A DNA stretch of 64,000 nt from Acidobacteriota bacterium (GTDB lineage: Bacteria; Acidobacteriota; Thermoanaerobaculia; Multivoradales; UBA5704). Positions 6,163 through 23,975 of this stretch are shown one piece after another. The translations under genes and the position numbers were made by a program. The notes beneath the pieces are model-generated. The model worked only from the letters and a program-made list of their open reading frames with translations, was not told where the DNA came from and ran no database searches. The first letter of the stretch is position 1; each line of letters starts with the position of its first letter. The stretch covers positions 4,009 to 68,008 of the forward strand of contig JBKPTH010000063.1 of NCBI GenBank assembly GCA_046765915.1, written 5' to 3'.

Positions 6163-8091
6163 ATGGCCACTGCCGCACTCAGCCGCCGTTGGACCCCGGC
6201 CGACTCTCTCGACCTCTACAACGTCCGGGGTTGGGGCAACAACTACTTTTCAGTCAGCGACGAGGGCCACATGCTGGTCCATCCCGGCGGGCCCGGCAGC
6301 AAGCCGGCCATCGATCTCAAGGAGCTGGTGGACGAGGTGCGCGAGCGCGGCATCACGCCGCCGCTGCTCATCCGCTTCGCGGAGATCATCCAGGCGCGCG
6401 TCGTCGAGCTCAACGAGGCCTTCGGCCGCGCCATCTCCGAGTACGGCTACCAGGGCCAGTACCGCGGCGTCTATCCGATCAAGGTCAACCAGGTCCGCTA
6501 CCTGGTCGAGCGGCTGGTGGAGTACGGCCGGCCGTATCACTTCGGCCTGGAGGCGGGCTCGAAGCCGGAGCTCCTCGCCGTCATGGCGATGCTGGAGGAC
6601 GAGGACGCTCTCATCATCTGCAACGGCTACAAGGACGAGGAGTACGTCGAGACGGCGCTCCTCGCCGGCAAGCTGGGCCGCCACGTGATCCTGGTGGTGG
6701 AGAAGCCCTCCGAACTGCCGCTCATCCAGGAGATCTCCCGCCGGCTCGGCGTGCGCCCGCACATCGGCATCCGCTCGCGGCTCTCCGCCAGGGGCGCCGG
6801 CCATTGGGAGGCCTCGGGCGGCGACCGCTCGAAGTTCGGCCTCTCCGGGCGCGACCTGCTGGACGCGATGGCCTTCCTGCGCGAGAACGGCATGCTCGAC
6901 TCCTTCGAGCTGCTCCACTTCCACCTCGGCAGCCAGGTCTCCTCCATCCGCTCGGTGAAGGACGGCCTGCGCGAGGCGGCCCAGGTCTACGCCAACCTGG
7001 TGCAGATGGGCGCGCCGCTCGGCTACCTCGACGTCGGCGGCGGCCTCGGCGTGGATTACGACGGCTCGCAGACGAACTTCACCTCGTCGCTCAACTACAC
7101 GCTGCAGGAATACGCCAACGACATCGTCTTCGGCATCATGGAGGTGTGCGACGCCAAGGGCGTGCGCCATCCGACGATCGTCTCCGAGTCCGGGCGCGCC
7201 ACGGTGGCCCATCACGCGGTGCTGATCATCGACGTGCTGGGGGTCTCCGAGTTCGAGGTCGGCAAGCTGCCGCGCAAGGCGCCGGCGAAGGCCGAGCCCT
7301 CGCTGCGCAATCTCTTCGAGACCTACCGCGAGGTGTCGCGCAAGAACCTGCTGGAGTCCTACCACGACGCGATCTCCTACCGCGACGAGTGCCAGAGCCT
7401 GTTCAACCTCGGCCACCTGTCGCTGGAGGACCGCGGGCTCGCCGAGGACCTGTTCTGGGCCACCTGCCGGAAGATCCTGCGCATCACGCGCACGCTGCCG
7501 CAGGGTCAGGTGCCGGAGGACCTGGAGGGTCTCGAGCGTCAGCTCGCGGACACCTACTTCTGCAACTTCTCGGTCTTCCAGTCCGTGCCCGACTCCTGGG
7601 CCATCGACCAGCTCTTCCCCATCGTGCCGATCCACCGCCTGGACGAGGAGCCGGCGGCGCGCGCCGTGCTCGCCGACATCACCTGCGATTCGGACGGCAA
7701 GATCGACCACTTCATCGACCGGCGCGACGTCAAGGACGTCCTCGAGCTCCACGACTACCGGCATGGCCAGCCCTACTATCTCGGCGTCTTCCTCGTCGGC
7801 GCCTATCAGGAGATCCTGGGCGACCTGCACAACCTCTTCGGCGACACCAACACCGTGCACGTCGCGCTCGACCCGGAGGAGGACTACACCATCGAAGGCG
7901 TGGTCAACGGCGACACGGTGAGCGACGTGCTGCGCTACGTGCGCTACAACCGCGACGACCTGGTGGCGCGGGTGCGGCGGGCCGCCGAAGCGGCGCTGCG
8001 GGCCAAGCGCCTGACCTTCGAGGAATCGCGGCAGCTCCTCCGCAGCTACGAGGAGGGGCTCTCGGGATACACTTATCTCGAGCAGGATTGA
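6163..8091 (+). CDS. speA: Biosynthetic arginine decarboxylase
   Basis: N-terminus MATAALSRRWTPADSLDLYNVRGWGNNYF typical of SpeA (fold III PLP decarboxylase). AGAGAGGAG SD upstream of ATG 6163. 642 aa. Confidence 0.88.
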   Translation: MATAALSRRWTPADSLDLYNVRGWGNNYFSVSDEGHMLVHPGGPGSKPAIDLKELVDEVRERGITPPLLIRFAEIIQARVVELNEAFGRAISEYGYQGQYRGVYPIKVNQVRYLVERLVEYGRPYHFGLEAGSKPELLAVMAMLEDEDALIICNGYKDEEYVETALLAGKLGRHVILVVEKPSELPLIQEISRRLGVRPHIGIRSRLSARGAGHWEASGGDRSKFGLSGRDLLDAMAFLRENGMLDSFELLHFHLGSQVSSIRSVKDGLREAAQVYANLVQMGAPLGYLDVGGGLGVDYDGSQTNFTSSLNYTLQEYANDIVFGIMEVCDAKGVRHPTIVSESGRATVAHHAVLIIDVLGVSEFEVGKLPRKAPAKAEPSLRNLFETYREVSRKNLLESYHDAISYRDECQSLFNLGHLSLEDRGLAEDLFWATCRKILRITRTLPQGQVPEDLEGLERQLADTYFCNFSVFQSVPDSWAIDQLFPIVPIHRLDEEPAARAVLADITCDSDGKIDHFIDRRDVKDVLELHDYRHGQPYYLGVFLVGAYQEILGDLHNLFGDTNTVHVALDPEEDYTIEGVVNGDTVSDVLRYVRYNRDDLVARVRRAAEAALRAKRLTFEESRQLLRSYEEGLSGYTYLEQD

Positions 8092-8102
8092 GAGGAGACA
8101 TT

Positions 8103-8675
8103 ATGAAAACAATGGCGCCCGTCGTGGATCCCCTGATCGACCGGCTGCGCGAGGCGGTGATGCTGGGCGATATCGCCGCCGTCACCGCGCGCATCAAGGG
8201 CGATCTCGAGTCGTTCATCCCCGCCGAGGGACTGACCCTGCCGGAGCACTTCCGCCAGGCCAGGCCGGACCGCTACGCGCGGCGGCTCCTCTACCGCGAT
8301 CCCGATCTCGGCTTCACGGCGCTCGTCATGACCTGGGGACCGGGGCAGCGTACGGCGCTCCACGACCACGCGGGCATCTGGTGCGTCGAGGGCGTGGTCG
8401 AGGGCAACATGGAGGTGACGCGCTACGAGCTGACGGAGGAGGGGGAGGATGGGATCTGCCATTTCGTCGAGCGCGGCAAGGTACCCGCCCGGGCCGGCAC
8501 GGCGGGAGCGCTGATCCCGCCCTTCGAGCACCATGTGCTGGCCAACGCGCGGCCCGATCAGGCTTCGCTCACCCTCCACGTCTACGGCGGCGAGATGACT
8601 CACTGCGACATCTTCGAGCCGCTCGGCGACGGCCTCTACCGGCGATGTACGAGGCAGCTCAGTTATGACGAGTAG
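8103..8675 (+). CDS. Cysteine dioxygenase type I-like cupin
   Basis: LHDHAGIWCVEGVVEGNMEV matches the CDO HDH...C motif. Cupin size (190 aa). ATG 8 nt after GAGGAGA, immediately downstream of speA stop. Confidence 0.72.
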   Translation: MKTMAPVVDPLIDRLREAVMLGDIAAVTARIKGDLESFIPAEGLTLPEHFRQARPDRYARRLLYRDPDLGFTALVMTWGPGQRTALHDHAGIWCVEGVVEGNMEVTRYELTEEGEDGICHFVERGKVPARAGTAGALIPPFEHHVLANARPDQASLTLHVYGGEMTHCDIFEPLGDGLYRRCTRQLSYDE

Positions 8676-9087
8676 GCCCGTTTTTCGGGTCAAGGCTGAG
8701 CACGGCGAGGTCGGGAAAGTATTGGCGCAGGTATCCGCGGTCTTTGGCAGCGAGACGGTCGGCCTGCACTTTGGCGTGGGCAGCGATCAAGAAGTCGGGG
8801 ATCAGGTGCTCTCGCGGTCCGCCCTCCGCACGATATCGCTTGAAGGTATGCCCTGCGAGCCAAGCCGCCTCGGCCCCGATCGGATCGAGATGAGCACCTA
8901 AATCCGCCAACACCTCGTCAAGCTCGGCTCGACTCTCAAAGGCAGGAGTTATCTCGGCATAGACGACCTCGCACAGCACCAGCAAGCCCTGGCGCCGCGC
9001 CTGGATCAAGATCTCCATCCAGTCCTCGGCACCAGGCTCCTGGTTGAACACTGTCAGGAGCGCCGACGCATCGAGGGCGAGCTTCAC
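8659..9087 (-). CDS. vapC: PIN-domain toxin VapC
   Basis: MKLALDASALL PIN N-terminus. 142 aa. GTGA overlap with upstream antitoxin stop. Confidence 0.8.
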   Translation of the reverse strand: MKLALDASALLTVFNQEPGAEDWMEILIQARRQGLLVLCEVVYAEITPAFESRAELDEVLADLGAHLDPIGAEAAWLAGHTFKRYRAEGGPREHLIPDFLIAAHAKVQADRLAAKDRGYLRQYFPDLAVLSLDPKNGPTRHN

Positions 9088-9326
9088 TGGTCCCTCTCAC
9101 CGACACGGCCACGAGTCTCGTCGAGCCACTCATCGGAGGTTTTCTTCAGCCGGCCGCGGGTACGACCGATAACCGCCCGCATCGCCTCTTCGTCGAAAAC
9201 CGGCACCGCCAGGACATATGGCGCCTTCTCGTCGAACTCGAGGACTTGGCCGGCTTGCAGACCGAGACGCCGCCGAATCGCCGTCGGAATGGTGACCTGG
9301 CCTTTGGACGTAAGCGTGGCTTTCAT
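9084..9326 (-). CDS. vapB: AbrB/SpoVT-type antitoxin VapB
   Basis: MKATLTSKGQVTIPTAIRRRLGL swapped-hairpin motif. Alternative TTG start at 9332. Confidence 0.72.
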   Translation of the reverse strand: MKATLTSKGQVTIPTAIRRRLGLQAGQVLEFDEKAPYVLAVPVFDEEAMRAVIGRTRGRLKKTSDEWLDETRGRVGERDQ

Positions 9327-9393
9327 ACCCAAAGCGTAATACGACGCAGTAAGGAATACAAGTAAGGAGTTGCCGGTGACTCTCTAGAGGTTG

Positions 9394-9870
9394 CGCAGAT
9401 CCGTTGGAAGCCTTCAATGGGCCTTTGGAGGCTTCCAACGAGTCATTGTACCTTCCAACGGCTCACCGGAAATCTTCGCTGGGCTTCGGTTTCTTCCCAT
9501 GGGCCGCTGGAAGTCTCGGCGGCGCGTTGAAAGCCTTCGACGGCTCATCGGAAATCTTCAAGAGTCGTCGAAAGTGCCGGTAAGCCGTTGGAAGCTCCCA
9601 AAGGGGCGTTGGAAGCCTCCACGAGGCGCCGAAGATCTCCAATGGCCCGTTGAAGGCTTTCGATGAGGTGTTGGAAGGAGCGATGGCCCTTTGGAAGCTT
9701 CCAAGGGTACGCCGAAGACTTCCAAGGAGCCGTCGAAGATCTCCGATGATCCGTTGGAGACTTCCAAACAACGTTGAAGACCTACAATGGCCCGTTGGAG
9801 CCTCCCATGGAGCTTTGGAGGTTTCCGGCGCGCCATTGAAAGTCTCCAAGAGCCGTTGTAAGCTTGGAAT
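9394..9870. repeat. Tandem array of ~23 degenerate 21-bp units, each containing a dyad (consensus CGTTGGAAGCCTCCAANGGNC; ideal unit CCCTTTGGAAGCTTCCAAGGG)
   Basis: Read directly: 21-bp periodicity. TTGGAAG(N0-2)CTTCCAA palindromes. No unique spacers. Stops in all frames across parts of the array. Confidence 0.7.
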
Positions 9871-9871
9871 G

Positions 9872-9904
9872 AAGCAAAAAGGGGAGCGTGCTGGGGGCAC
9901 GCTC
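9872..9904 (-). terminator. Rho-independent terminator of upstream hypothetical gene
   Basis: Minus strand reads GGGAGCGTGC-CCCCAG-GCACGCTCCC followed by CTTTTTGC, directly after the TAA at 9925. Confidence 0.6.
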
Positions 9905-9924
9905 CCGGAATCCTGCCTTACGGA

Positions 9925-10331
9925 TTACTGCTCATCGGTGTCAGGAGCCGGCTGAGGGCTCGCGACGGACTGCGGTGGCGGGACGTCGGGGGTCTCGGCC
10001 GGTTTCGCTTTGCGGCCGCGGAACGGCTGCAGGCCGAACTCCGTCAGCTTCTCGGCGCGGCTGCCGTAGCGATGCTTGAGGCCGCCTCGCATCACGGTCG
10101 CCAGCTTCGCGCCCTCGATCATCACCGTCTGCAGGCGCTTCGAGGTCTCCTGCTTGGCGGCCTGGTGAGCCGCCTGCTGCTTGGTGAGCTCGCGCGCCTC
10201 CTGGAGCAGCTTTCCAGGTCGATGCGGAGGAGCTCGAGCTGAGGCAGCTCGGAGGCGTTCGCGGCCGCGGAGGCCGTGATCTCTTCCCACTCCTTGAGGT
10301 GGTCGGCGTAACGACTCTTCTTGTCAGGCAC
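9925..10331 (-). pseudogene. Hypothetical coiled-coil protein interrupted by a -1 frameshift in a 3-nt A/T run (~10205-10215)
   Basis: Two overlapping minus ORFs (9925..10290 and 10122..10367) read as one coherent protein if one base is added in GGAAAGC: MPDKKSRYADHLKEWEEITASAAANASELPQLELLRIDLE|KLLQEARELTKQQAAHQAAKQ... GTG start at 10331 with AAAGGAG SD. Confidence 0.45.
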
Positions 10332-10638
10332 CTTCTCACTCCTTTCGGACCTTCGGGTCCAGTCCACTGACGCCTTTGTGGCGCCAGAGTCTCGATTTCG
10401 AAGCTCTTCCAGGGTACGAAGGTTGAACCTGCAGAGTCTAGCTTCTGAGAAAGCTCTTGTCGGCCGAAGATATTACAGGTCAGCATAATCCATTGAGGAG
10501 CAATGACTTAGCGCGATTCGCTCAAAAGCTCCAGGGGGGCGAGATTCGCCCCGAGGCGGGTGAAATTCCACCCGTTGCGGTTTGGTCGGCGCGCCGTAGG
10601 CCGCGGCTGATCCCACTCGGGAGATTTGCCGATTCGAC

Positions 10639-11016
10639 GTGTTTGTCAGCTATGCTGCAAAGGATAGCGAAGTGGCGAAGGAGCTGCAGCGAGCCCTCCA
10701 GAGAAAGGGTTTAGATTGCTTTCTCGCTGAGAAAGATTTAACCGCTGGCAAGGTTTGGCGCGAGGAGATAAGAGATGCGTTGCACCTGTCACGTGTGTTT
10801 GTGTTATTGCTGACCCCAAATTCGGTGACGAGCAAGTGGGCCATGTGTGAGGCTGGTGCCTTCTGGGCGCTCCGAAGGCCCATCGTCCCGGCTTATATGT
10901 TCGTTAATATAGGCGACGTTCCCGAGATAATATCCGAATATCAATGTAGGCGCATAGAATCTTACAGTGATCGAACTGATTTCGTTAGGGAAGTATATTC
11001 TCTCTGCCGTGGATGA
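10639..11016 (+). CDS. TIR-domain protein (standalone, 125 aa)
   Basis: MFVSYAAKDSEVAKELQRALQRKGLDCFLAEKDL...FVLLLTPNSVTSKWAMCEAG matches the bacterial TIR pattern F-SY-D...L...G...F-D...W...I...S...VLL-S-NS-S-W-E, including the conserved Glu. About 50% GC versus about 68% background. Confidence 0.8.
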   Translation: MFVSYAAKDSEVAKELQRALQRKGLDCFLAEKDLTAGKVWREEIRDALHLSRVFVLLLTPNSVTSKWAMCEAGAFWALRRPIVPAYMFVNIGDVPEIISEYQCRRIESYSDRTDFVREVYSLCRG

Positions 11017-11282
11017 TCGAGCAGGTGGGAGGGCTGCATGCAAATATCACAACGCATCGGTAGGGCGGCCAATCCTCGGAGCGAGCACTGAGGCGAGCAG
11101 ACCGCTGAAAGCGCCTATCCGGCCACAAATGGCAGGGCCGGAGGGAAGCTCCCTGCTGGGAACCGCGCTAACCGGTCTCTGGATCGGAGCTTCGCGGACG
11201 CATCGCGGAAAGCTGCCACAAACCACGCGTAGGCAGTCCAGAGCTCCTGACGCACCGACTTGTCTCACCGCATGGAACAACG

Positions 11283-11308
11283 GCGCCGGTGACTTCTTCG
11301 GCCGCATC
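11283..11308. repeat. 26-bp direct repeat, copy 1 (GGCGCCGGTGACTTCTTCGGCCGC)
   Basis: 25/26 identical to copy at 11724..11749. Both encode GAGDFFGR in frame. Confidence 0.6.
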
Positions 11309-11384
11309 GTATCGGTAGGGGCAGCCGCCGTCCTGTTCCGAGCGTGGTAGGATTTTTATGGAGAGACGCAACCACGGAGGTATC

Positions 11385-11585
11385 ATGGATCTGGAAGTTG
11401 TCGAGAAGGAAGTCGCAAGCTGGGCGCCGGAGGAGCAGGATCGCCTCGCAGCGTTTTTGACCGTACTCCGCTTGAAGAGAACACCGGACCATGTCCAAGA
11501 GCTGACCCGGCGCCTGGACGATCGCAATCCCACCAATTGGGTGAGCTTGGACGAAGTCAGGTCGCTTCGCGAACACCGTGGATGA
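11385..11585 (+). CDS. Small hypothetical protein, possible antitoxin of a RelE/ParE-like remnant pair
   Basis: GGAGG SD 6 nt before the ATG. ATGA overlap with the next small ORF. 66 aa. Confidence 0.35.
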   Translation: MDLEVVEKEVASWAPEEQDRLAAFLTVLRLKRTPDHVQELTRRLDDRNPTNWVSLDEVRSLREHRG

Positions 11586-11719
11586 AGCTCTCATACGACG
11601 TCTTCATCCGTCACGAGGTCTTCCGAACTCTTCAGGGGGCCAGCGCTAGCGACCAGGAGCGCGTCTTAGACGCCGACAAGGAAGTTCGAGTCGTCGATCT
11701 CGCTAACGCCGAAGGATGA
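11582..11719 (+). CDS. Truncated RelE/ParE-like toxin remnant (45 aa)
   Basis: MKLSYDVFIRHEVFRTLQGAS...ERVLDADKEV resembles a RelE/ParE N-terminus. Truncated just before direct-repeat copy 2. Confidence 0.3.
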   Translation: MKLSYDVFIRHEVFRTLQGASASDQERVLDADKEVRVVDLANAEG

Positions 11720-11723
11720 CAGC

Positions 11724-11749
11724 GGGCGCCGGCGACTTCTTCGGCCGCG
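11724..11749. repeat. 26-bp direct repeat, copy 2
   Basis: GGCGCCGGCGACTTCTTCGGCCGC. See copy 1. Confidence 0.6.
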
Positions 11750-11801
11750 CCGGGGCTCGGCGAGATTCTAACGCCCTGGTCAGATAGAATCGCGCACCGT
11801 C

Positions 11802-13361: not shown

Positions 13362-16277
13362 ATGAGCCGCGAAGACGAGACTCAGCGGGTGAGCGCCGCG
13401 CGCGCGGAGACGGAAGCGCGGGGCGAGACTTTCTACCCCGGTCCCAGCCGGGTCCACCTCGCCTCCTATCCTCCCAAGGAGCGATGGGACGACTGGACGG
13501 AGCTGGATTCCCGCGCCTGGCCGCAGCGGGTCGAACGCCGCTATCTGCTCGTGCCCACGACCTGCTTCAACTGCGAGTCCGCCTGCGGCCTGCTCGCCTA
13601 CGTCGACCGCGAGACCCTGGAGGTGCAGAAGCTCGAAGGCAACCCCGAGCATCCGGGCTCGCGGGGGCGCAACTGCGCCAAGGGTCCCGCCACCCTGAAC
13701 CAGTTGACGGACCCCGACCGCATCCTCTTTCCGCTGCGCCGCGCCGGGCGCCGCGGTGAGGGCAAATGGGAGCGGGTGACCTGGGAAGACGCGCTCGCCG
13801 ACATCGCCTCGCGCATCCGCAAGGCGATCGTCGAGGGCCGCCAGCGCGAGATCATGTACCACGTCGGCCGGCCGGGAGAGGACGGCTTCACCGAGCGCAT
13901 CCTCGCCGCCTGGGGAGTGGACGGCCACAATTCGCACACCAACATCTGCTCTTCGGGCGCGCGCGCCGGCTATGAGCTCTGGTGCGGCATCGACCGGCCC
14001 AGCCCCGACCACGCCCGCGCCAAGGTCATCCTGCTGGTCTCCTCGCACCTGGAGACCGGCCACTACTTCAATCCGCACGCCCAGCGCATCATGGAGGGGA
14101 AGGCCAGCGGCGCCAAGCTCGTCGTCTTCGACACCCGCCTCTCCAACACCGCCACCCACGCCGATCACTGGGTGGCGCCGATTCCGGGCTCGGAAGCGGC
14201 GATCTTCCTCGCCATCGCCAACCACCTCGTCCAGACCCGCCGCTACGACCGCGAGTTCGTGCGCCGGTGGTGGAACTGGCAGGAATTCCTGGAAGCGGAG
14301 CACCCGGAGCTCGCCCCCACCTTCGAGAGCTTCGAGGCGGTGCTCTCCACCCTCTACGCCGACTACACCTTCGACTTCGCCGCCGCCGAATCGGGGGTGG
14401 AGGCGGCGGTGCTGGCGCAGATCGCCGAGCTGGTGGCGGGCGCCGGCACGCGCTTGGCGACTCATACCTGGCGCAGCGCCGCCGCGGGCAATCTCGGCGG
14501 CTGGCAGGTGGCGCGCACCCTCTTCCTGCTCAACGCGCTGATGGGCGCCGTGGCGACGGAGGGGGGCACCTACCCGAACGCCTGGAACAAGTTCGTGCCC
14601 AAGCCCATCCATCTGCCGCGCCATCCGGAGCACTGGAACGAGCTCACCTGGCCGGCCGAGTTTCCGCTCAGCATGTACGAGCTGTCCTTCCTGCTGCCGC
14701 ACTTCATCCGCCAGGGGCGCGGCCGCCTCGACGTCTACTTCACCCGCGTCTACAACCCGGTGTGGACGAACCCCGACGGCTTCTCCTGGATCGAGATGCT
14801 GCGCGACGAGGAGCGGGTCGGCTGCTACGTGGCGCTCACGCCAACGTGGAACGAGACCGCCTTCTTCGCCGACTACGTCCTGCCCATGGGGCATGGGTCC
14901 GAGCGGCACGACCTGCACTCCTACGAGACCCATGACTCGCAGTGGCTCGGCTTCCGCCAGCCCGTGCTGCGGGCGGCGCGCGAGCGGCTGGGCGAGACGG
15001 TGGCCGACACCCGCGCCGCCAATCCGGGCGAGGTCTGGGAGGAGAACGAGTTCTGGCTGGAGCTCACCTGGCGGATCGATCCCGACGGCAGCCTCGGCAT
15101 CCGTCCCTTCGCCGAGTCAAAGCAGCGCCCTGGCGAGCGCCTGACCGTCGACGAATACTACGGCTGGATCTTCGAGCATTCCGTCCCCGGCCTGCCGGAG
15201 CGGGCGGCGGCCGAAGGCCTGACACCGCTCGCCTGGATGCGCCGCTACGGTGCCTTCGAGATCAGCCGCGACCTGGGGCCGGTGTTCGAGCGCGAGGTGC
15301 CGCCGGAGGAGCTCGTCGATGCCGCCGAGGACGCCTACGGCCGCGTCTACACCCGCGCCCCGAAGCCTCCGTCGCCCAACATCGTGCCGATGGGCGCTCC
15401 CGAGCCCGACGCCGAGGGCCGCCGGCCGGCGGGCGTACGCCAGGGAGACAGGGTGCTGCAGGGTTTTCCCACCCCCAGCGGCCGGCTGGAGTTCTACTCC
15501 TCGACGCTGGCGAACTGGGGCTGGCGCGAAGTCGCGCTGCCGGCCTACATGGGGAGCCACGTCCATCCGCGGAGCCTCGGTCCGGACCGCATGTGCCTCA
15601 TCTCGACGTTCCGGCTGCCGGTCCACATCCATACCCGCAGCGCCAACGCCAAGTGGCTGGACGAGATCGCCCACACCAATCCGCTCTGGCTTCACCCCAA
15701 GGACGCGGAGCGTTTCGGCGTCGGCACCGGCGACCTGGTGCGGGTGGAGACGGAGATCGGCCGCTTCGTCGTCAAGGCCTGGGTGACGGAGGGGATCCGG
15801 CCGGGAGTGGTGGCCTGCAGCCATCACATGGGGCGATGGCAGCTCGCCGCGGCCTCCGGCCAGGCGCAGCGTCTGCACATGGCGACCGTCGGCCTGGAGC
15901 AGGACGGCAGCCGCTGGACGCTGCGCCGCGAGCGCGGCGTCGAGCCGTTTTCATCGAGCGATCCCGATACCGCGCGGCTCTGGTGGACCGACGTGGGCGT
16001 GCACCAGAACCTGACGTTCCCGGTCCACCCCGATCCCATCTCCGGCATGCACTGCTGGCATCAGGCGGTGCGGGTGACGAAAGCCGCCCCCGGCGATCGT
16101 TATGGCGACGTTGAAGTCGACACCGCGGCGTCGCGGCGGGTCTTCGAGGAATGGCTCGCCCAGGCCCGGCCGGCGACTCACCACTCCCCGGACGGCACCC
16201 GGCGGCCCTATTGGCTCATCCGTCCGCTCAAGCCCTCGCGGGAAGCCTACCGGCTCCCCCGAACCGCGCCGGCGTAG
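13362..16277 (+). CDS. Molybdopterin oxidoreductase catalytic subunit (DMSO-reductase family), no twin-arginine motif
   Basis: N-terminal CFNCESACGLL...C FeS motif and molybdopterin oxidoreductase signatures. 971 aa. The minus ORF 11832..14933 is its antisense shadow. Confidence 0.85.
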   Translation: MSREDETQRVSAARAETEARGETFYPGPSRVHLASYPPKERWDDWTELDSRAWPQRVERRYLLVPTTCFNCESACGLLAYVDRETLEVQKLEGNPEHPGSRGRNCAKGPATLNQLTDPDRILFPLRRAGRRGEGKWERVTWEDALADIASRIRKAIVEGRQREIMYHVGRPGEDGFTERILAAWGVDGHNSHTNICSSGARAGYELWCGIDRPSPDHARAKVILLVSSHLETGHYFNPHAQRIMEGKASGAKLVVFDTRLSNTATHADHWVAPIPGSEAAIFLAIANHLVQTRRYDREFVRRWWNWQEFLEAEHPELAPTFESFEAVLSTLYADYTFDFAAAESGVEAAVLAQIAELVAGAGTRLATHTWRSAAAGNLGGWQVARTLFLLNALMGAVATEGGTYPNAWNKFVPKPIHLPRHPEHWNELTWPAEFPLSMYELSFLLPHFIRQGRGRLDVYFTRVYNPVWTNPDGFSWIEMLRDEERVGCYVALTPTWNETAFFADYVLPMGHGSERHDLHSYETHDSQWLGFRQPVLRAARERLGETVADTRAANPGEVWEENEFWLELTWRIDPDGSLGIRPFAESKQRPGERLTVDEYYGWIFEHSVPGLPERAAAEGLTPLAWMRRYGAFEISRDLGPVFEREVPPEELVDAAEDAYGRVYTRAPKPPSPNIVPMGAPEPDAEGRRPAGVRQGDRVLQGFPTPSGRLEFYSSTLANWGWREVALPAYMGSHVHPRSLGPDRMCLISTFRLPVHIHTRSANAKWLDEIAHTNPLWLHPKDAERFGVGTGDLVRVETEIGRFVVKAWVTEGIRPGVVACSHHMGRWQLAAASGQAQRLHMATVGLEQDGSRWTLRRERGVEPFSSSDPDTARLWWTDVGVHQNLTFPVHPDPISGMHCWHQAVRVTKAAPGDRYGDVEVDTAASRRVFEEWLAQARPATHHSPDGTRRPYWLIRPLKPSREAYRLPRTAPA

Positions 16278-16283
16278 CGGCGT

Positions 16284-16457
16284 TCAATCCTCCGGAGGGC
16301 CAAACCAGACCCGCAACGGGCTGACCCCCTGGCGGCGCGCCACCCGCATGCGCATCCGCTGGATCCGGCTCCAGCGTACCAGGCCCGAGCCCCAGGTCTT
16401 TTCCATCGCGAAACCGGCAAAGGCCCCAACCAGCAGCGTACTTACGAACGTCAACAT
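16284..16457 (-). CDS. Possible small membrane protein (57 aa)
   Basis: MLTFVSTLLVGAFAGFAMEKTWGSG. High GC3. GAGGG 8 nt before the ATG. Weak call. Confidence 0.3.
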   Translation of the reverse strand: MLTFVSTLLVGAFAGFAMEKTWGSGLVRWSRIQRMRMRVARRQGVSPLRVWFGPPED

Positions 16458-19423: not shown

Positions 19424-19942
19424 ATGTTGACGGCCTTCGAGGACACCGCCCAGAGGTACCGGCGCCGGGTCTACTCGTTCGCCCGCTACTTCCTCTCCAA
19501 CCGGGAGGAGGCGGAGGACGTGACCCAGGAGGTGCTCCTCCGCCTGTGGCGCCATCGCAGCGGCGTCGACGAGGAGCGCCTCGGCGCCTGGCTGCTGCGG
19601 GTGACCCGCAACGCCTGCTACGACCTGCTGCGCAAGCGGCACGCGGACGCCGGCGCGGGGTTCGGCGCCAGCCTCGACGCCGAAGGGGCGGAGGAGGTCG
19701 CGAGCGCCGAGCCCGATCCGCAGGCGCGGGCCGAAGCCGCGGATTTCCGGCGGCGCCTGCTCGCGGCGCTGGCGGAGCTCGAAGAGCCGTACAAGAGCGT
19801 CGTCATCCTGCGCGAGGTCCAGGGCCTCGCCCACCGCGAGATCGGCGAGGCCCTCGGCGTCCCCGAGGTCACCGTGCGAGTCCATCTCCACCGAGGCCGG
19901 CGCAAACTGCGGGAACGACTGCGGGAGGTATCGCCATCATGA
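19424..19942 (+). CDS. ECF-subfamily RNA polymerase sigma factor
   Basis: Region 2 (YRRRVYSFARYFL...DVTQEVLLRLW) and region 4 (LREVQGLAHREIGEALGVPEVTVRVHLHRGRRKLR). Confidence 0.85.
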   Translation: MLTAFEDTAQRYRRRVYSFARYFLSNREEAEDVTQEVLLRLWRHRSGVDEERLGAWLLRVTRNACYDLLRKRHADAGAGFGASLDAEGAEEVASAEPDPQARAEAADFRRRLLAALAELEEPYKSVVILREVQGLAHREIGEALGVPEVTVRVHLHRGRRKLRERLREVSPS

Positions 19943-23714: not shown

Positions 23715-23975
23715 ACCCCGCCGGTTGCGTTGGGGCGTCCGCCGGCTGCGATGGGAAGCGCATCGGTTGGGATGCGACATGCAGTGGCAGAAATGCGGCG
23801 CGCATCCGTTGGGATGGAATGCCCCTTGGCAGCACCGGGCGCGCATCGGTTGGGACATAGAGCCCATTGGCGCCGATGGGACTTGCATTGGATGCGATGG
23901 TGCGCCCATCGGTTGCGATGGGACATGCATCCGCTGCAAGGGGACTCCCTTCGCAGCGGCCGCCTACCCTCATGG
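23715..23975. repeat. Second tandem array, ~13 units of 21 bp (consensus CATCGGTTGCGATGGGACATG), each with a CCATC-N6-GATGG-type dyad
   Basis: Read directly. Same period and architecture as the 9394..9870 array. Lies in the divergent region directly upstream of the cPLA2-like gene. Confidence 0.7.

Follow-up and report, generated by a model that had tools for sequence, protein, structure and literature searches.

In the type Ia partition system of the F plasmid, the gene for the binding protein SopB is directly followed by sopC, a tandem array of about 0.5 kb that comprises 12 units of 43 bp, each with a short inverted repeat that takes one SopB dimer. Centromere-binding proteins of different systems, SopB among them, share little sequence (PMC2910045). 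Type II and type Ib centromeres (parC/ParR of pSK41 and R1; parH/ParG) are built of contiguous, phased 10- or 20-bp repeats, direct or inverted, that stand beside a small cognate gene, usually upstream of it, and their DNA wraps on a protein superhelix (PMC5016525). They have 4-10 units, and their proteins are ribbon-helix-helix (RHH) repressors with a ParM or ParA motor.

Type III toxin-antitoxin (TA) loci (toxIN, cptIN, tenpIN) combine a tandem-repeat array, an intrinsic terminator and one small protein gene, in the order promoter, tandem repeats, terminator, toxin gene (PMC3401426). REP/BIME/REPIN elements are extragenic palindromic units of alternating orientation situated just after a terminator, and REPs form one sequence family with many copies dispersed across the genome (PMC3733652). 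Finally, the nucleoid proteins H-NS and Lsr2 have an N-terminal helical oligomerisation region and a flexible C-terminal segment with a Q/RGR motif, which is documented as an AT-hook-like minor-groove motif (PMC4466236).

The locus compared with these systems here is a repeat array with its neighbouring gene in the window, by which we mean the whole 64-kb stretch of Acidobacteriota DNA that was analysed (Table 1). Segmentation and unit alignment give 23 head-to-tail units between 9401/9404 and 9873/9876, 13 of them 21 bp and 10 of them 20 bp long (mean 20.57), with autocorrelation maxima at 20/21, 41 and 61/62; the count of 23 made in the preliminary description therefore stands, but its uniform length of 21 bp does not. 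The unit consensus is cCGTTGGAAGC(t)TCCAAnGG, with TTGRA as the conserved core and GAA present in 8 of the 23 units. The internal dyad that had been ascribed to every unit is a property of this consensus only (a 20-bp palindrome, CCGTTGGAAG followed by CTTCCAACGG): a perfect 14-mer palindrome occurs a single time in the array, at 9691-9704, and about seven units can form no hairpin. The array can be described as 46 half-sites of about 10 bp each, alternating in orientation.

Table 1. Positions, in the window, of the array, its terminator-proximal unit and the elements of the adjoining HP125 gene.
Feature	Position	Strand	Description	Basis
Repeat array	9401..9873	.	23 degenerate, non-coding units	Segmentation, alignment, motif enrichment
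First (terminator-proximal) unit	9853..9873	-	Minus-strand sequence TTCATTCCAAGCTTACAACGG; atypical	
Intrinsic terminator of HP125 gene	9876..9906	-	10-bp GC-rich stem 9882-9906, T-run 9876-9880 (plus-strand scale)	Terminator scan
HP125 CDS	9925..10331	-	135 aa, GTG start	ORF call, orthologue, family search
HP125 frameshift site	10211..10213	-	One A missing from A4 run: GGAAAAGC -> GGAAAGC	Alignment of window HP125 with intact L114 gene
Conserved 5' leader of type-A HP125 genes	10339..10387	-		Seven-locus alignment

Within the window, the unit is private to this array. The motif TTGGAAGCTTCCAA (up to 3 mismatches) has 8 matches inside it and 1 elsewhere in the 64 kb, as against a mean of 1.04 in shuffled sequence, where 0 of 100 shuffles reached 9. 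A search for further copies of the consensus had been proposed, and PWM and pattern scans of the window returned only background-level matches outside the array; a weak unit-like stretch at 10395 was rejected as a further copy because it is not significant. Among 80 related loci the unit has no match except in the orthologous array of L070, and blastn with the array as query returned none from PLSDB plasmids or INPHARED phages. The array is no assembly artefact, since positions 7813-9902 recur with 100% identity in a short-read assembly made independently (Logan SRR20019834, L001).

Immediately upstream on the minus strand is the gene of a small protein, HP125. The terminator reported at 9872..9904 is real, with a slightly different stem and T-run (Table 1); it lies on the minus strand and ends this upstream gene, and the array begins about 2 nt past the T-run. 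In the other type-A loci printed, the same hairpin or a compensated variant of it, with a T-run, likewise separates the array from the stop codon. The unit next to the T-run (...CCAAGCTTACAACGG or CCAGTCTACAACG in L070, L082, L083, L084, L085 and L114) is conserved across loci even where the remaining units differ. Within the 5' leader, one hairpin, CTGGCGCC...GGCGTCAG, occupies 10367-10387 and a second, GGACCCGAAGGTCC, occupies 10347-10360, followed by the Shine-Dalgarno sequence AAAGGAG at 10339-10345; compensatory changes are seen in L084 and L085 in the seven-locus alignment. The intact orthologue (P0003/L114) differs by 1 aa, and the frameshift of the window copy is either a homopolymer assembly error or a recent inactivation. 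The HP125 gene of L070 is frameshifted too, at a different place.

The family of HP125 falls into about 1,400 clusters at 50% identity. Single genomes contain several paralogues, and all members with a named source are from Thermoanaerobaculia. The AlphaFold2 model (mean pLDDT 80) predicts a helix at 4-24, a 60-residue helix at 30-89 and a disordered basic tail, which carries the conserved motif EKLxEFGLQPFRGRK. Sequence and fold comparisons with Pfam, NCBIfam, PADLOC and the PDB gave no match, the fold search against the PDB yielding nothing meaningful; a weak hit to the NCBIfam 'PQLLE family' (E = 0.005) was set aside as far below cutoff and without a lead in the literature. No HTH, RHH or winged-HTH fold is recognisable, and outside the tail the protein is not strongly basic. 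Types B and C of HP125 have only degenerate forms of the RGR motif (RRRR, RRPRKK). This degeneracy, the lack of a recognisable DNA-binding fold and the frameshift in the window copy are observations that run against DNA binding by HP125.

The association of gene and array extends well beyond the window. Eighteen of 20 assessable loci (the window, L070, L114, L082-L087, L090, L092-L095 and L097-L100) have the type-A layout of gene, GC-rich hairpin with T-run, and array, with 17-36 units in about 0.3-0.6 kb and periods of 20.0-21.2 bp whatever the unit sequence. The array is upstream of the gene in type C (10 loci) and type B (3 loci), where the repeats come first, then promoter, leader and gene, and no terminator intervenes. 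Related loci totalling 1.4 Mb, of which arrays make up only a few per cent, contain five HP125 copies, and 4/5 of these (3/4 counted independently) lie within 400 bp of an array; the linkage holds down to about 40% protein identity while all other neighbours change. Unit sequences are subfamily-specific, unrelated between subfamilies, and track protein relatedness: protein identity correlates with array 7-mer similarity (Spearman 0.62, Mantel p = 2e-4), a correlation that could stem from co-inheritance of linked DNA alone. Proteins that go with TTGGAAG-type units (window, L084, L085) differ from those of the TTSAAGG type (L082, L083) at E48D, H55L, A58G/S, I/V71K/R and A/G74K. One candidate pair of HP125 gene and array, L051, was rejected on inspection because no clear array was seen.

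It is thus very probable that the array belongs to HP125, the small gene across the terminator, and the package of gene, terminator and array is inherited as one block across Thermoanaerobaculia, with varying flanking genes. The terminator had been treated as a boundary; the gene beyond it is the constant partner of the array. Similar orphan arrays, of 20-22-bp units and with no HP125 gene nearby, also exist (L002, L008, L019, L056, L059, L064 and window positions 23740-23950), and a search with the C-terminal motif found no cryptic HP125-like genes beside them; therefore, another factor or a general generating process may be involved.

In the searches made here, no described system matches this module, in agreement with the earlier statement that no described element has such an architecture, which was upheld in Rfam, in plasmid and phage databases and in the literature. 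As with sopC, the gene of a putative binding protein is directly followed by its tandem array of about 0.5 kb, and an inverted repeat is present, here as a consensus. Unlike sopC, the window array has 23 units of 20-21 bp, several kb around it contain no SopA/ParA gene, the module occurs in multiple copies and on the chromosome, and HP125, the putative binder, is helical and without HTH. In nearly all loci that could be assessed, the gene of this presumed binding protein has an array beside it, on the 3' side in type A and on the 5' side in types B and C. No partition NTPase (ParA/SopA, ParM or TubZ) is found among the ORFs around the window array (8103-11719), nor among called genes and Pfam matches within about 4 kb in L082, L083, L084, L114, L115 and L116; a partition-type HTH, RHH or winged-helix fold was likewise sought in HP125 in Pfam, NCBIfam, the AlphaFold2 model and the PDB, and not seen. 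A plasmid, prophage or extrachromosomal location is not indicated either: the window contains housekeeping genes and tRNAs, HP125 orthologues are on Mb-scale chromosomal contigs, and none was found in PLSDB plasmids or IMG/VR viral contigs.

The resemblance to type II/Ib centromeres lies in the contiguous phased repeats beside a small gene, with types B and C having the array upstream as is usual in those systems. HP125 differs in having no RHH fold, its arrays are longer (17-36 units as against 4-10), and type-A promoters have no array-like operators. These promoters show no excess of 8-mers from their own array (4.8, versus 4.6 for the arrays of other loci), and autoregulation of HP125 via unit-like operators is therefore unsupported. 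HP125 recalls H-NS and Lsr2 in combining a long helix with a conserved PFRGRK tail, and the array resembles their targets in being less GC-rich than the genome; unlike HP125, H-NS and Lsr2 possess a C-terminal DNA-binding domain that is folded, their recognition is of base composition and not of a private array, and they are present in one or few copies per genome. A CRISPR array, with conserved repeats, unique spacers and cas genes, had been ruled out at the outset, rightly so, as the units are contiguous and all mutually related and the neighbours include no cas genes. With regard to plasmid iterons or a replication origin, which would have a Rep initiator gene beside them together with DnaA boxes and an AT-rich region of unwinding, no Rep-family match was found among the neighbouring ORFs scanned or the precomputed Pfam matches of the neighbours.

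The layout is promoter, structured leader, HP125, strong intrinsic terminator and about 0.5 kb of 20-21-bp units. We judge the chances to be even that this is a compact module of two parts, with HP125 as one and the array as its cis element. Somewhat less assured, at a little under even chances, is the mechanism that we infer from the architecture, in which the array would be a phased binding-site array on double-stranded DNA for HP125 oligomers. HP125 would oligomerise via its long helix and bind the phased units at about one dimer per two helical turns, all sites facing the same side, and an extended nucleoprotein complex of about 23 sites would result. The invariant RGR-containing tail might anchor in the minor groove at A/T patches of the units, and the specificity of each paralogue for its own array would reside in variable residues of the helices. 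The terminator in type A, or the position of the array upstream of the promoter in types B and C, would keep the array outside the transcription unit, such that RNA polymerase would not strip the HP125 complex. The two-turn phasing pointed out earlier is borne out, being common to many unrelated arrays, and it fits a protein-binding platform better than an RNA; A/T content in family arrays is also often phased, at 10.3-10.6 bp. Such a module could serve as a locus-positioning or centromere-like site, as a local silencing or insulating structure, or as a platform for HP125 titration.

A more tentative proposal, which we hold with distinctly lower confidence, is that HP125 and its private array constitute an unrecognised class of self-contained chromosomal nucleoprotein modules of Acidobacteriota, in which about 25 dimers of a small coiled-coil protein would form a filament on a phased 0.5-kb array shielded from transcription, with >1,000 specificity pairs. 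If so, the role of these modules could be to mark, position, silence or insulate the accessory DNA next to them, and they would amount to a natural library of orthogonal pairs of protein and DNA array whose recognition needs no known DNA-binding fold. Binding of HP125 to its array would mean that an abundant uncultured soil lineage has a large, fast-diversifying family of this kind without a motor partner, and that sequence-specific nucleoprotein filaments can be built in a new manner; the conspicuous 20-22-bp arrays of these genomes, which repeat and CRISPR finders likely flag as unexplained, would be accounted for as well, and orthogonal pairs of array and binder could be used for locus tagging. 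For annotation, such arrays should be paired with the small gene across the terminator and not with the cassette on the far side.

The alternative that survives best, unlikely as we consider it, is that the binder is a host factor other than HP125, for instance gyrase, a nucleoid protein or a protein of replication or recombination, and that the link of HP125 to the array is a genetic one. Orphan arrays of like geometry, the absence of a known DNA-binding domain in HP125, and two-turn phasing with A/T periodicity, which is generic for protein-wrapped DNA, would all be accommodated by this explanation. However, array-specific units that are unrelated between subfamilies fit a single host factor poorly, and one would not expect linkage to HP125 to be kept to about 40% protein identity while other neighbours change.

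It is improbable, too, that the array is a functionless minisatellite, generated by slippage or unequal crossing-over in gene-poor DNA and hitch-hiking beside the gene. Units are degenerate, and their number varies among close strains (23; 23 by loss of 2 and gain of 2; 22; and a further variant), as the proposed comparison with related strains brought out: the L070 array has 23 units with two 2-unit indels relative to the window, and that of L114 has 22. Recently homogenised higher-order repeats of 82 bp with 90-95% identity are present in some arrays. Against this stand the architecture, period and overall size, which remain constant despite unrelated unit sequences, and an uneven conservation governed by position within the unit (chi2 = 59.4, df 19, p = 5e-6). 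Moreover, the array diverges more slowly than neighbouring synonymous sites in the one species pair compared, on few substitutions (window versus L070, about 22/430 in the array and 28/214 at third codon positions of vapBC; Fisher p = 8e-4), and individual aberrant units are retained between species.

A structured-RNA role had also been raised, and the tests made here lend it no support. The array could act as RNA if a transcript arising by read-through or from an unmapped promoter bound the arginine-rich tail of HP125, as a sponge or as a partner in the manner of type III TA, and we give this a low probability. Arginine-rich tails can bind RNA. Type III TA loci (PMC3401426) group a gene, a terminator and tandem repeats in a similarly compact way, and the array folds more strongly than shuffles on both strands (z = -9.7 and -7.8), which would be expected of any palindromic repeat. 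However, the order of elements is opposite: here it is gene, terminator, array, or array, promoter, gene, and in none of types A, B and C is it repeats, terminator, toxin. Type III TA repeats number 2-6, are near-identical (ToxI, 36 nt) and form pseudoknots, unlike the 23 or so degenerate 20-21-bp units here, and the toxin there is a ToxN/Kid-like endoribonuclease, whereas HP125 is all-helical, with no Pfam, PADLOC or PDB match that would relate it to ToxN, AbiQ, CptN or TenpN. Between T-run and first unit there is no space for a promoter, in types B and C the promoter comes only after the array, and arrays are outside the HP125 transcription units. There is no per-unit hairpin covariation, native units folding no better than chimeric ones (p = 0.29), nor any asymmetry of G:U versus A:C in the dyads (111 vs 120), and many family arrays are not palindromic (L092, L093, L095 and type C). 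Rfam, at gathering and permissive thresholds over the window and 7 related loci, gave only spurious miRNA-like matches caused by palindromy, and GGA, which a Csr/Rsm sponge would present in hairpin loops, would fall in the stem.

The array was first described as lying upstream of vapBC, like an oversized operator. It is indeed 61-70 bp from the vapB start codon on the same strand, and its units contain TGGNA-like cores; such cores are an AbrB preference. An oversized operator or decoy for VapB, an antitoxin of AbrB/MazE fold, would accord with this, but such a role in controlling vapBC is very improbable. The near-identical strain L114 has terminator, 22-unit array, 6 bp and the CDO stop codon, with no vapBC, and the array is therefore not the vapBC operator, as sites of that kind would travel with the TA operon. 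A conserved, compact promoter/operator region with direct repeats, at 9327-9375, is retained by vapB itself. Within this pair of strains, vapBC is a separate cassette between array and CDO gene, found in that of the window only. Among the 80 related loci, VapB homologues are confined to the window and L070, with a vapC remnant in L002 in addition, and no other homologous array printed or annotated adjoins vapBC; downstream neighbours are unrelated between loci (ADH, an AF_1845-like gene, an HTH gene, CDO and others).

That the array encodes a heptad-repeat protein, or is a remnant of one, is extremely improbable: 21 bp equal 7 codons and ORFs of 90-145 aa traverse the array on both strands, but 10 of its 23 units have 20 bp, the period of sister arrays is strictly 20 bp, the longest ORF begins within the terminator, and the translated ORF found a single 'homologue', a strain variant, among 5.8 billion proteins, which rules it out as a protein family. 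The array was rightly called intergenic, given a mixed 20/21-bp period that is not a multiple of 3 and 1-nt indels that distinguish the orthologous arrays of the window, L070 and L114; stop codons, noted before in all frames over parts of it, occur in all six. The translated search overlooked the sister arrays of L084 and L085, and is thus not a sensitive census of arrays. Signals of 21-bp autocorrelation in L054, L080 and L022:16894 are coding repeats and were excluded.

The array shares with REP/BIME/REPIN elements its extragenic palindromic units, their alternating orientation and the position just after a terminator. In contrast to REPs, the unit is seen in a single array of the 64 kb, units differ from locus to locus, and the constant partner is HP125 and not a RAYT (an IS200-like Y1 transposase). 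A common genome-wide REP had been named as what would overturn the first description; dispersed copies are absent from the 64-kb window and, the L070 orthologue excepted, from the 80 related loci. No IS200/RAYT-like gene is annotated near the arrays of L082-L084 or L114, whereas L070 has one at 15361-16323, 3.5 kb from its array (a weak Y1_Tnp match, E = 2.6e-4, below the Pfam cutoff), and the window has an IS200/RAYT-like remnant at 11115-11255.

Read in register, the array resolves into 23 contiguous head-to-tail units, 13 of 21 bp and 10 of 20 bp (mean 20.57 bp), and over 7813-9902 the window matches an independent short-read contig (Logan SRR20019834) without a single difference. This bears out the array given in the preliminary description, but its 21-bp period holds for the 13 longer units only. 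Because unit lengths are mixed, the autocorrelation maxima at 20/21 (0.435/0.443), 41 (0.477) and 61/62 are not clean multiples of 21, and because the units are ~65-70% alike, TRF reports just 3.6 copies. Unit alignment gives the consensus cCGTTGGAAGC(t)TCCAAnGG, a 20-bp palindrome equal to 10-bp half-sites alternating in orientation, with conservation somewhat higher in its left half (G7 in 23/23 units, C3 and A9 each in 22/23). The claim of a palindrome in every unit was overstated, since about seven units lack a foldable dyad. With up to three mismatches, the 14-mer TTGGAAGCTTCCAA is found at eight sites within the array and at one other site in the 64 kb, versus a mean of 1.04 in shuffles, none of 100 reaching 9. 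Stops are present in all six frames, as had been proposed, and the array is non-coding. The reported terminator exists as well, but it is a minus-strand element that terminates the upstream gene, HP125 (our working name).

Features of the window around the array and around a second array
Feature	Position	Strand	Remark
Low-GC island	8676-11750		GC 0.48-0.63; flanks ~0.68
speA		+	same region as CDO
CDO, cysteine-dioxygenase-like gene	8103-8675	+	
vapC, PIN	9087 to 8659	-	
vapB, MazE/AbrB fold	9326 to 9084	-	
vapB upstream segment	9327-9375	-	~50 bp
Array	9394-9876		23 units
HP125 terminator	stem 9882-9906, T-run 9876-9880	-	
HP125, 135 codons	10331 to 9925	-	
HP125 5' leader	10339-10387	-	two hairpins
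TIR-domain gene	10639-11016		divergent from HP125; ThsB-like hits in PADLOC
IS200/RAYT-like Y1 transposase	11115-11255		C-terminal remnant; intact copy at L070:15361-16323
Two small ORFs without family	region reaching 11358-11719		in island, beside module
Second array	23740-23950		~10 units
72-aa ORF	23683 to 23465	-	no Pfam hit
647-aa gene	from 24043		

On the minus strand of this genome, which belongs to the class Thermoanaerobaculia (Acidobacteriota), the order is HP125, terminator, array, a 61-bp spacer, vapB and vapC, and the preliminary description read the array, upstream of vapBC, as positioned like an oversized operator, iteron or centromere-like site. Comparison with related loci (L-numbers) shows an assignment to vapBC to be wrong. 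In L070, another species with a CDO 86% identical, vapC, vapB, the array and the upstream gene are all present as a block; its array also has 23 units, traceable to those of the window one by one, with a 41-bp deletion fusing u6 and u8 and two additional units between u10 and u11. At the metagenomic locus L114 (JGI) the chromosomal site is unchanged and the product of the upstream gene differs by one amino acid; the array, with 22 units (one 21-bp unit is missing), stops 6 bp short of the CDO stop codon, and vapBC is absent altogether. The array is therefore independent of vapBC. A third allele, in which another of the units is missing, is revealed by P0001, a spurious ORF read through a strain-variant array, so repeat number does vary among related strains, the comparison that had been proposed. 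In addition, the segment upstream of vapB, near-invariant with respect to L070 and carrying CCTTACT direct repeats, probably serves as the true promoter and operator of vapBC. Only ~11 nt separate its -10-like TATTAC from the ATG, and the vapB mRNA may therefore be leaderless.

In L002, the closest relative by CDO (91%), the chromosomal site of the window island (L002:10573-10985) retains only ~120 bp of the vapC 3' end. Beyond this remnant, ~12 units of an unrelated 22-bp repeat (written CTCACACACTGTGAG... or CTCACACACTGTGAGGnnnnnC) extend up to a 4Fe-4S/NrfD gene, and no HP125 gene is found there. The vapC/vapB/array/HP125 block (window 8600-10605, L070:10499-12554) is 94-96% identical, versus 87-88% for speA and CDO, which suggests that the island either was exchanged more recently or is more strongly constrained.

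Scanning of 80 related loci by TRF and autocorrelation revealed many arrays of 20-22-bp units, each with its own unit sequence. All-against-all BLAST of the ORFs flanking them returned one recurring family unexplained by synteny, namely the window's 135-codon gene, L070:2684-3070 and L027:11912-12277, each adjoining a different array. No fewer than 385 homologues were recovered in a profile search; none has a protein name, and those with a named source are all Thermoanaerobaculia; the family comprises 1,422 cluster representatives at 50% identity (E <= 1e-3). No relative was found in Pfam, NCBIfam, PADLOC or the PDB. Context look-ups and one metagenome scan supplied 32 further loci, which fall into three subfamilies. 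In type A (at least 37% identity to the window protein), 18 of 20 assessable loci show the stop codon, 30-60 nt, a GC-rich hairpin with T-run and then directly the array, the remaining two being L091 (array upstream) and L096 (not closely inspected). Unit counts in these arrays are 17-36, at 20.0-21.2 bp per unit; conservation of the unit adjoining the terminator (...CCAAGCTTACAACGG) persists at loci whose later units have diverged, and the genes beyond are unrelated between loci. Type-B genes have a 21-bp-unit array 150-250 bp upstream, and type-C genes a ~300-bp array preceding a conserved promoter and a leader with the mini-ORF ATGACCTGA. Thus the array is part of a module of HP125, terminator and array, and this module is widespread and diversified in the lineage.

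The spectrum of unit sequences extends from close variants of the one in the window (L084, CCATTGGAAGCTTCCAATGG; L085, TTGGACG/TTGGAAG; L082 and L083, TTGAAGG/TTCAAGG; L086, CGTCGGAAGCTTCCGACG) to unrelated, non-palindromic ones (L093, CCGCCAAACTTTACGGCGCN x 29; L092 and L095, ...ACATCGTGAC...). Protein identity correlates with array 7-mer similarity (Spearman 0.62, Mantel p = 2e-4), which shows that the two have long been inherited as a unit but does not by itself establish that their specificity co-evolved.

Regardless of unit sequence, the period remains two helical turns (20.0-21.2 bp), and many arrays show A/T phasing at 10.3-10.6 bp; both features argue for a role at the DNA level. The evidence speaks against the reading as structured RNA: no Rfam family matches the array, native units fold no better than chimeras assembled from left and right halves of different units (-3.88 vs -3.65 kcal/mol, p = 0.29), imperfect dyads on the sense strand of eight palindromic arrays show no excess of G:U over A:C (111 vs 120, p = 0.6), several family arrays have no dyad, and arrays lie outside transcription units, either ~2 nt past a strong terminator or upstream of a promoter. 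In favour of constraint are the strongly uneven conservation across unit positions (chi2 = 59.4, df 19, p = 5e-6), the conserved core beside free spacer in the L008 and L093 arrays, and slow divergence. Between the window and L070, ~22/430 sites differ in aligned units, versus 28/214 vapBC third codon positions (p = 8e-4) and 22/237 sites in non-coding 10368-10605 (p = 0.05), figures from one species pair with few substitutions and from an island more similar overall (94-96%) than speA/CDO (87-88%).

For HP125, modelling by AlphaFold2 from 33 homologues (mean pLDDT 80) gives predicted helices at 4-24 and 30-89 (60 residues), followed by a short helix and a disordered tail; coiled-coil oligomerisation would be expected of such a fold. 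The N-terminal third differs between subfamilies; the best-conserved elements are QQAALxASKQE, within the long helix, and EKLxEFGLQPFRGRK, where the tail begins. RGR is the AT-hook-like minor-groove motif of Lsr2 and H-NS (PMC4466236), and by analogy that of HP125 may act likewise. We infer that, on double-stranded DNA, HP125 oligomers would occupy the phased units and that the resulting extended complex would be kept free of transcription. However, HP125 has no known DNA-binding fold, type-A promoters carry no array-like sites, and orphan arrays exist without HP125. The preliminary reading as a protein-binding array is plausible, apart from its assignment to vapBC. The window gene is frameshifted, its A4 run (10211-10213) being one A short by comparison with the intact gene of L114 (P0003), and that of L070 is frameshifted at a different position, reflecting either homopolymer assembly error or real lesion or decay.

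The closest functional analogues are sopC/SopB, parC/ParR and parH/ParG, in which a centromere array is paired with a cognate small protein (PMC2910045, PMC5016525). However, the HP125 module has no NTPase partner and is not on a plasmid or phage, and the protein has neither RHH nor HTH fold. Type III toxin-antitoxin systems share the parts list but differ in order, unit properties and protein type (PMC3401426), and within the 64 kb scanned the window unit lacks the dispersal that defines REP/BIME elements. CRISPR, iterons and Csr-type sponges are dismissed, their defining features being absent. Literature searches returned no description of such arrays in Thermoanaerobaculia. Overall, we assign the element to a lineage-wide and previously undescribed module of gene and array, known in kind as a cis array with cognate protein; the chance that it represents a new class is substantial, though less than even.

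Several other features accompany these modules. The two hairpins of the conserved 5' leader shared by type-A genes lie directly upstream of the Shine-Dalgarno sequence and show compensatory changes in L084 and L085, possibly marking a post-transcriptional control element. In some type-A arrays, 82-bp higher-order repeats (4 units, 90-95% identity; L097:3519-4148, L098:3492-4084, L099:3572-3929) indicate recent amplification or homogenisation by unequal exchange. Type-C genes (L107:1090-1320, L111:1290-1480, L112:2800-2985, L109:2800-2985, L105:455-645) have a promoter-like TTGACA...TAnnAT in common, and their conserved leader, without Rfam match, combines a two-codon mini-ORF AGGAGGTCTCCATGACCTGA with a GAGGGCGGGAAnCCCTC hairpin. 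A group II intron domain (RF02005, 80 bits; L027:14286-14443) lies at a contig end 1.3 kb from a type-C array. In two type-B loci, an ArgR-like repressor gene is divergent across the array from HP125 (L115:1507-1956, L070:3739-4236).

Non-coding arrays of 20-21-bp units also occur without nearby HP125 (L008:1-445, L019:94-529, L019:2435-2650, L026:660-1189, L030:3852-4094 and 19603-19825, L042:603-803, L056:19196-19505, L059:2734-3019, L064:4870-5348), all in Thermoanaerobaculia loci, and several adjoin toxin-antitoxin pairs. The L008 array has a 10-bp core (CCACCGCAAC) in a strict 20-bp period, and that of L064 consists of two sub-arrays in inverted relative orientation. Units at L019:2435 match type-C arrays, with a PIN/antitoxin pair in the gene's place. 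The second array of the window, unrelated to the first, has an exact 21-bp period and internal dyads (unit ~CGATGGGACATGCATCGGTTG), and occupies the divergent intergenic region between the 72-aa ORF and the 647-aa gene.
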